Positions 33,562 through 33,694 of a DNA stretch of 64,000 nt are shown here, in pieces. Source of the stretch: Escherichia coli (GTDB lineage: Bacteria; Pseudomonadota; Gammaproteobacteria; Enterobacterales; Enterobacteriaceae). The stretch lies in assembly GCF_044324785.1 (NCBI RefSeq), contig NZ_CP172127.1. One strand, written 5' to 3'. The stretch's first letter is position 1. Each line of letters begins with the position of its first letter. Under the pieces are notes generated by a model. That model saw only the letters and a list, made by a program, of their open reading frames with translations. It searched no databases and was not told the origin of the DNA. Made by a program: the position numbers and the translations under genes.

Positions 33562-33595
33562 GATGCTCTCCCAAATATGAAATCTCTTGCTGGCA

Positions 33596-33612
33596 TTACA
33601 AGAATCATGCCA
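33596..33612 (-). promoter_or_regulatory. Candidate sigma-54 (-24/-12) promoter for pspG
   Basis: Minus-strand TGGCATGattcTTGT about 35-50 nt upstream of pspG ATG, matching TGGCAC-N5-TTGC at all but two positions. Confidence 0.55.
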
Positions 33613-33694
33613 AAAATAATCTATTGATTTAACAGCAAAACGCCCCGCGACGGTGCGCAGGGCGTGGTGAATTTGACTACTTTTTGGTGAAAAG

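Follow-up and report, generated by a model that had tools for sequence, protein, structure and literature searches.

Promoter, candidate PspF enhancer, predicted IHF site and putative dusA terminator in the 133-bp dusA–pspG spacer of Escherichia coli

The window, the whole stretch of 64,000 nucleotides that was analysed, contains the dnaB–qorA–pspG–dusA region of Escherichia coli. In the RefSeq annotation of a 99.8%-identical record, from which the placement of dusA and pspG was taken, pspG (envelope stress response protein) comes after dusA (tRNA dihydrouridine synthase A), and qorA and dnaB lie farther on. Both genes lie on the minus strand: dusA at 34738–33695, ending in a TAA stop codon (33697–33695), and pspG at 33319–33561, encoding 80 amino acids (PF09583) from an ATG at 33561 that is preceded by the Shine–Dalgarno sequence GGGAGAG (33566–33572, minus strand). 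The spacer between them is 133 bp long (33694–33562), the same interval that had been flagged in the preliminary description. The pspG frame stays open upstream across the whole promoter region into dusA and thereby produces a 150-amino-acid, GTG-started reading frame (33319–33771, minus strand) in the mechanical list; we rejected this as an artefact, given the conserved Shine–Dalgarno sequence and ATG at 33572–33559. Between zur and dusA lies a 318-amino-acid reading frame (35094–36050, minus strand), for which the annotation of a near-identical genome gives a DUF2713 family protein.

The 601 bases around the motif described below were matched in 5,425 of 5,426 complete E. coli genomes, and the window strain diverges from most E. 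coli genomes by 1–5% over this length, with all elements of the spacer intact. Across 33250–33850, identity is at least 99% in 1,479 of 5,427 E. coli records and 95–99% in the other 3,948, so that there seem to be distinct allele classes for the dusA–pspG region; the terminator-tail variant GGGGCATATTTTTT, seen in two of the loci that we compared (L006 and L008), is an example. An Rfam scan of the whole window at the gathering threshold gave nothing near the dusA–pspG spacer. Matches that reached the gathering score elsewhere are the sRNA sraL (18142–18282, plus strand), naRNA4 (51122–51192, minus strand), the sRNA STnc430 (60523–60671, plus strand) and a lysine riboswitch (62566–62762, plus strand). 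A permissive scan of 33000–34200 gave only sub-threshold chance matches, none of them in the spacer. Weak sub-threshold matches to ctRNA_p42d on both strands of the convergent qorA–pspG spacer (33150–33193) probably reflect just a shared hairpin.

Upstream of pspG lies the 17-mer TTGGCATGATTCTTGTA (33613–33597, minus strand), with a -24 element TGGCA (33612–33608) and a -12 element TTGTA (33601–33597). The preliminary description had proposed a sigma-54 promoter here. The 15-mer that it read, TGGCATGATTCTTGT, is indeed on the minus strand, at 33612–33598, but the interval given for it, 33596–33612, is 2 nt too low at one end. The spacing had been judged correctly, as GG and G(T) are the canonical 12 nt apart. 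The distance to the ATG was also well estimated: counted from the pspG ATG, the -12 T is 37 nt and the 5′ T of TGGCA 51 nt upstream. A further 82 bp separate the motif from the dusA stop codon, close to the 80 bp that had been expected. The promoter does not abut the dusA stop, as had been stated; the candidate enhancer described below does, from 3 nt past the TAA. By the rule of motif centre plus 19 used in Table 1 of PMC4591121, transcription in the window strain would start at 33586 (minus strand) and give a 25-nt leader.

This motif is the already characterised sigma-54- and PspF-dependent promoter of pspG, so that the preliminary description was correct and concerned established knowledge. 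The 17-mer is letter-for-letter the sigma-54 ChIP–seq site OS40 (PMC4591121), which is listed with pspG as its downstream gene, a predicted start 25 nt before that gene, a flag ‘C’ for experimental confirmation in EcoCyc and a ChIP–seq peak in MG1655 with a FAT value of 15. In the same study, pspA and pspG (PspF) are among five genes with an upstream intergenic site whose expression rose on sigma-54 overexpression. Genomic SELEX placed an RpoN holoenzyme peak in the dusA>pspG spacer (PMC8743547), and the orthologous Salmonella site, TGGCATGATTTTTGTAAG, was bound in ChIP–chip experiments (PMC3844500). Passages in PMC3709507 and PMC3041696 that cite Lloyd et al. 2004 describe binding of PspF to the upstream activating sequences (UASs) of the pspA and pspG promoters, assisted by IHF; with the same citation, these two papers and PMC4591121 state that pspG depends on rpoN and PspF. 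The promoter, sigma factor, activator and IHF dependence of pspG were established in 2004 and have been re-confirmed by genome-wide ChIP–seq and SELEX. The supplement of PMC3709507 holds no coordinates for the pspG regulatory region, PMC9604234 gives no PspF motif, and a literature search for descriptions of UAS I and UAS II and for yjbO added nothing.

Consensus searches alone do not single out the site. The degenerate consensus TGGCAYN5TTGY occurs once in the 64-kb window, against 1.05 occurrences expected, and TGGCACN5TTGCW with up to two mismatches gives 35 matches against 43 expected; both are at or below chance level. Because of this, we used a weight matrix built from published ChIP–seq sites, namely the 41 other intergenic sense E. 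coli sites in Table 1 of Bonocora et al. 2015, leaving pspG out. In the matrix scan, a check that the preliminary description had proposed, the pspG site scores 17.1 bits and ranks first among about 128,000 positions on both strands (runner-up, 14.7 bits), above the median of 15.7 bits for the 41 training sites. Dinucleotide-shuffled windows contain 0.285 sites of at least that score per window, and in the roughly 100 nt that precede a particular gene, about 2e-4 such sites in sense orientation would be expected by chance. Written as TGGCAT-GATTC-TTGTA, the site has exact spacing and two departures from TGGCAC-N5-TTGCW (C to T at -19/-20 and GC to GT at -12). It combines -24 and -12 elements at the invariant distance with a sense orientation close upstream of pspG.

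We compared 80 PspG-encoding loci from species-representative genomes, among them Escherichia, Citrobacter, Salmonella, Klebsiella, Raoultella and Enterobacter as well as Kosakonia, Lelliottia, Leclercia, Kluyvera, Pluralibacter and Phytobacter; dusA is directly upstream in all of them. The sigma-54 motif is present in all 80 of these Enterobacteriaceae loci, with a median score of 16.5 bits and a similar distance to the ATG. Mean identity to the window base is 0.995 for TGGCA and 0.99 for TTGTA, against 0.43 for the leader between the promoter and the Shine–Dalgarno sequence; the Shine–Dalgarno sequence itself stands at 0.88.

The motif could in principle be a chance resemblance, or one of the non-productive sigma-54 sites of which the ChIP–seq data include many within genes, with pspG transcribed from elsewhere. 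The chance frequency of the simple consensus in the window, and the suggestion of Bonocora et al. (PMC4591121) that many sigma-54 sites may never fire, would fit this. Against it stand the top matrix score in the window, the 99% conservation of both elements over 80 loci beside a leader at 43%, the EcoCyc confirmation, the rise of pspG on sigma-54 overexpression and the presence of a matching enhancer and IHF site, and published K-12 work that reports rpoN dependence contradicts a non-productive site. We regard this explanation as extremely improbable.

The -12 dinucleotide is GT rather than the canonical GC in 78 of the 80 pspG loci, and in pspA it does not vary over 9 genera (L003, positions 174–178, in E. 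coli). Among the 42 intergenic sense E. coli ChIP–seq sites, only pspA, pspG and ygeW have it. Selection seems to have kept the non-canonical GT as a property of PspF-dependent promoters.

Leader length ranges from 22 to 59 nt in the 80 orthologs. The two Salmonella enterica loci from subsp. arizonae and diarizonae (L022 and L045; positions about 1440–1500) have leaders of 58–59 nt instead of about 25 nt; between their sigma-54 promoter and Shine–Dalgarno sequence, about 34 bp are inserted that include a REP-like palindrome, GTAGACCCGGTAAGCGC...GCCGGGCAA. In Citrobacter werkmanii NBRC 105721 (L035), the -24 element upstream of pspG has GT in place of GG (TTGTCATG), and the site drops to 10.4 bits with the matrix; the pspG promoter may be weakened or lost there, or the change may be a sequencing error.

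The 82 bp upstream of the motif, in which the preliminary description had placed any enhancer sites, contain the bipartite element TTCACCA-N13-TTCACCA (33691–33665, minus strand), which begins 3 nt after the dusA stop and spans about -105 to -79 relative to the predicted start. Its distal half, TTCACCA (33685–33691, about -105 to -99), and its proximal half, AATTCACCA (33665–33673, about -87 to -79), together match TTCRCYA-N13-TTCRCYA exactly. This pattern occurs once in the window, against 0.37 occurrences expected even with one mismatch allowed, and is exact at the homologous position in 50 of the 80 pspG loci. The proximal half has a mean identity of 0.93 over the 80 orthologs, compared with 0.51 at third codon positions of dusA. 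The distal half is somewhat less conserved (0.80), and its variable bases fall on the R and Y positions of TTCRCYA. We rejected the alternative of an enhancer within the dusA coding region, because the shared psp element is confined to the DNA past the stop and conservation over the last 40 dusA codons follows the usual codon periodicity (identity 0.89, 0.95 and 0.51 at codon positions 1, 2 and 3 over the 80 loci).

The same pattern is found in the E. coli pspF–pspA region at UAS II and UAS I (L003, positions 71–97; about -118 to -92). We added the pspF–pspA spacers of eight further genera, for 9 genera in all, and TTCACCA-N13-TTCACCA-like words are present in pspA of each, several with one or two substitutions. 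The pspA enhancer consensus is GAAATTCACCACTTGTTAGTGTnATTCACCA (AATTCACCACTTGTTAGTGTnATTCACCA) and that of pspG is TTTTCACTAAAAGTTAGTCAAATTCACCA; the two agree in both words and in their 20-bp register, and their linkers are alike, GTTAGT at pspA and GTAGT (33680–33676) in the window. The proximal word AATTCACCA is the same as the pspA consensus word ATTCACCA. Both half-elements are present at pspG, in contrast to the published count of ‘one UAS’ for pspG and two for pspA (PMC3709507). We infer that TTCACCA-N13-TTCACCA at 33691–33665 is the PspF enhancer, and its halves would mark the positions that PspF contacts at pspG. This shared bipartite element, together with the IHF consensus at 33629–33617, supports the earlier expectation that the enhancer sites lie in the short space before the dusA stop.

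The predicted IHF site AATCAATAGATTA (33629–33617, minus strand), a perfect WATCAANNNNTTR, lies 16 nt upstream of the sigma-54 17-mer. Across the orthologs, conservation is 0.85 and 0.95 at its specified positions, compared with 0.46 at the four N positions, a footprint-like pattern, and an equivalent AAATCAATAAGATA block lies directly upstream of the -24 element of pspA in 9 genera. IHF would accordingly be predicted to contact pspG DNA at these specified bases. The spacer thus holds a pspA-UAS-like element in the range of about -80 to -125 and an IHF site between that element and the promoter.

A further element, which the preliminary description had missed, takes up about one-third of the 82-bp space. 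A terminator scan, an RNA fold and covariation analysis all point to an intrinsic-terminator-like hairpin with a T-run at 33637–33665 (minus strand). The hairpin (33665–33640) starts 29 nt past the dusA stop and has a 10-bp stem (33665–33656 with 33649–33640) with 8 G–C pairs and a 6-nt loop, followed by TTTT; the first base of the stem is also the final one of the proximal PspF half-site. A 76-nt stretch that includes it folds with a minimum free energy of -21.5 kcal/mol (z = -2.5). Over 76 distinct orthologs, 96.7% of the alignment cells in the stem are paired and compensatory changes occur in 9 of the 10 pairs. None of 500 shuffles is as good on any measure, and sliding the 3′ arm lowers pairing to 32–60%. 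In each of the 76 distinct orthologs, the hairpin is succeeded by a T-run when read along the sense strand of dusA; this run is 4 T long in the window strain. A GC-rich stem-loop and U-run thus follow the stop codon, and compensatory substitutions keep the pairing. From the position, strand and T-run of the hairpin, 33665–33637 is therefore read as the probable intrinsic terminator of dusA, with an efficiency that we infer. A literature search on dusA, pspG and terminators found nothing relevant.

The terminator bears on the possibility that pspG is driven mainly by read-through from dusA or by a sigma-70 promoter in the spacer, with the sigma-54 site adding only a boost under stress. The two genes are co-oriented and 133 bp apart, only 4 T follow the hairpin in the window strain, and a basal level of pspG expression has been reported (PMC3709507), all of which would suit such a source of transcripts. 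A sigma-70 promoter as the main driver was rejected, as a scan of the minus strand from 33200 to 34000 found no sigma-70-like site in or near the spacer. Read-through is countered by the covarying GC-rich hairpin and T-run between the genes in 76 of 76 distinct orthologs, and by the description of pspG as PspF- and sigma-54-dependent with a 20-fold induction (PMC3709507). Taken together, we consider such a main source of pspG transcripts very improbable. The sigma-54 promoter that the preliminary description had proposed is backed by the OS40 identity, the SELEX peak and the Salmonella ChIP–chip site, and the dependence on PspF and sigma-54 that it had stated by the papers that cite Lloyd et al. 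2004.

Another possibility is that the hairpin acts primarily at the DNA level, as a curved, cruciform or protein-bound element that sets the geometry of PspF contact, rather than as a dusA terminator. Its position between the enhancer and the IHF site, and a distance of 50–53 bp from enhancer to sigma-54 motif in every pspG ortholog with the repeat, although the hairpin sequence varies, would agree with this. The compensatory changes speak against it, since they preserve pairing rather than sequence in 9 of the 10 pairs; so do the T-run, which always comes next on the dusA sense strand and is the signature of an RNA terminator, and the pspA spacer, which at the same place is non-palindromic and poorly conserved. 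This explanation seems to us very improbable.

Because the stem shares its first base with the proximal half-site and the gap is held at 50–53 bp, we also considered that the dusA terminator is no bystander but is integrated into the enhancer–promoter loop. A second, separate reading is that pspG has a full two-part enhancer like that of pspA, contrary to the published ‘one UAS’. Taken together, we consider these readings unlikely. If the first held, dusA transcription passing through the enhancer and ending within the loop would modulate PspF occupancy or looping, and the basal level or the induction kinetics of pspG would be coupled to dusA expression. Enhancer and promoter are separated by 51 bp at pspG and by 64 bp at pspA, and the 13-bp difference is no whole number of helical turns.

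Three conserved elements, the enhancer, the terminator and the IHF site, lie with the promoter within 133 bp, and on this ground the preliminary finding is correct but ordinary: the dusA–pspG spacer is very probably the complete enhancer-dependent promoter of pspG. No observation speaks against the promoter assignment; the points that fit this reading less well are the chance-level bare consensus, the -12 GT, the published single UAS and the 13-bp difference in gap from pspA. In the mechanism that we propose, the textbook one for promoters of this class, sigma-54 RNA polymerase would sit on TGGCAT-N5-TTGTA (33612–33597) as a closed complex, with PspF on the bipartite TTCACCA-N13-TTCACCA (33691–33665). 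IHF would bend the DNA at AATCAATAGATTA (33629–33617), the bend would deliver the PspF hexamer to the polymerase, and ATP hydrolysis would open the promoter for transcription from near 33586 with its 25-nt leader. PspA would keep PspF inactive when there is no membrane stress. The putative dusA terminator (33665–37), between the enhancer and the IHF site, would halt dusA transcription ahead of the sigma-54 promoter and would double as spacer DNA of the loop, the single feature of the mechanism that is particular to this locus.

The importance of these observations beyond annotation is small. As a by-product, we obtain a base-level map of a compact 133-bp spacer, backed by conservation in 80 genomes, that yields a candidate PspF enhancer consensus common to pspA and pspG and presents the non-canonical -12 GT as a conserved trait of psp promoters. 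To our knowledge, pspA and pspG are the only two known PspF targets. The map also suggests that a terminator can nest between an enhancer and a sigma-54 promoter and leave both undisturbed. For those who use pspA and pspG as model enhancer-dependent promoters, these points are small and can be tested.

The closest known system is pspGp of E. coli K-12 (yjbO; Lloyd et al. 2004 J Biol Chem 279:55707; EcoCyc; OS40), with the same 17-mer, the same flanking genes and the same 25-nt predicted leader; the window promoter is that promoter in another E. coli strain, with no functional difference. The pspA promoter resembles it in the bipartite enhancer word, the 20-bp repeat spacing, the GTTAGT-like linker, an IHF-like AAATCAA block immediately upstream of the -24 element and the unusual -12 TTGTA. 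The two promoters differ in what fills the 51 bp (pspG) or 64 bp (pspA) between enhancer and sigma-54 motif: at pspA this stretch has no structure and overlaps the divergent pspF promoter; at pspG it is the putative dusA terminator. They also differ in reported inducibility, which is about 20-fold for pspG and about 100-fold for pspA (PMC3709507). Sigma-54 promoters that depend on IHF and other bacterial enhancer-binding proteins, such as glnHp2 and nifH, share the -24 GG and -12 elements, an enhancer about 80–110 bp upstream and an IHF bend in between. Unlike these, pspG has GT instead of GC as its -12 dinucleotide, and a spacer of only 133 bp accommodates its whole regulatory unit as well as what appears to be the terminator of the upstream gene.
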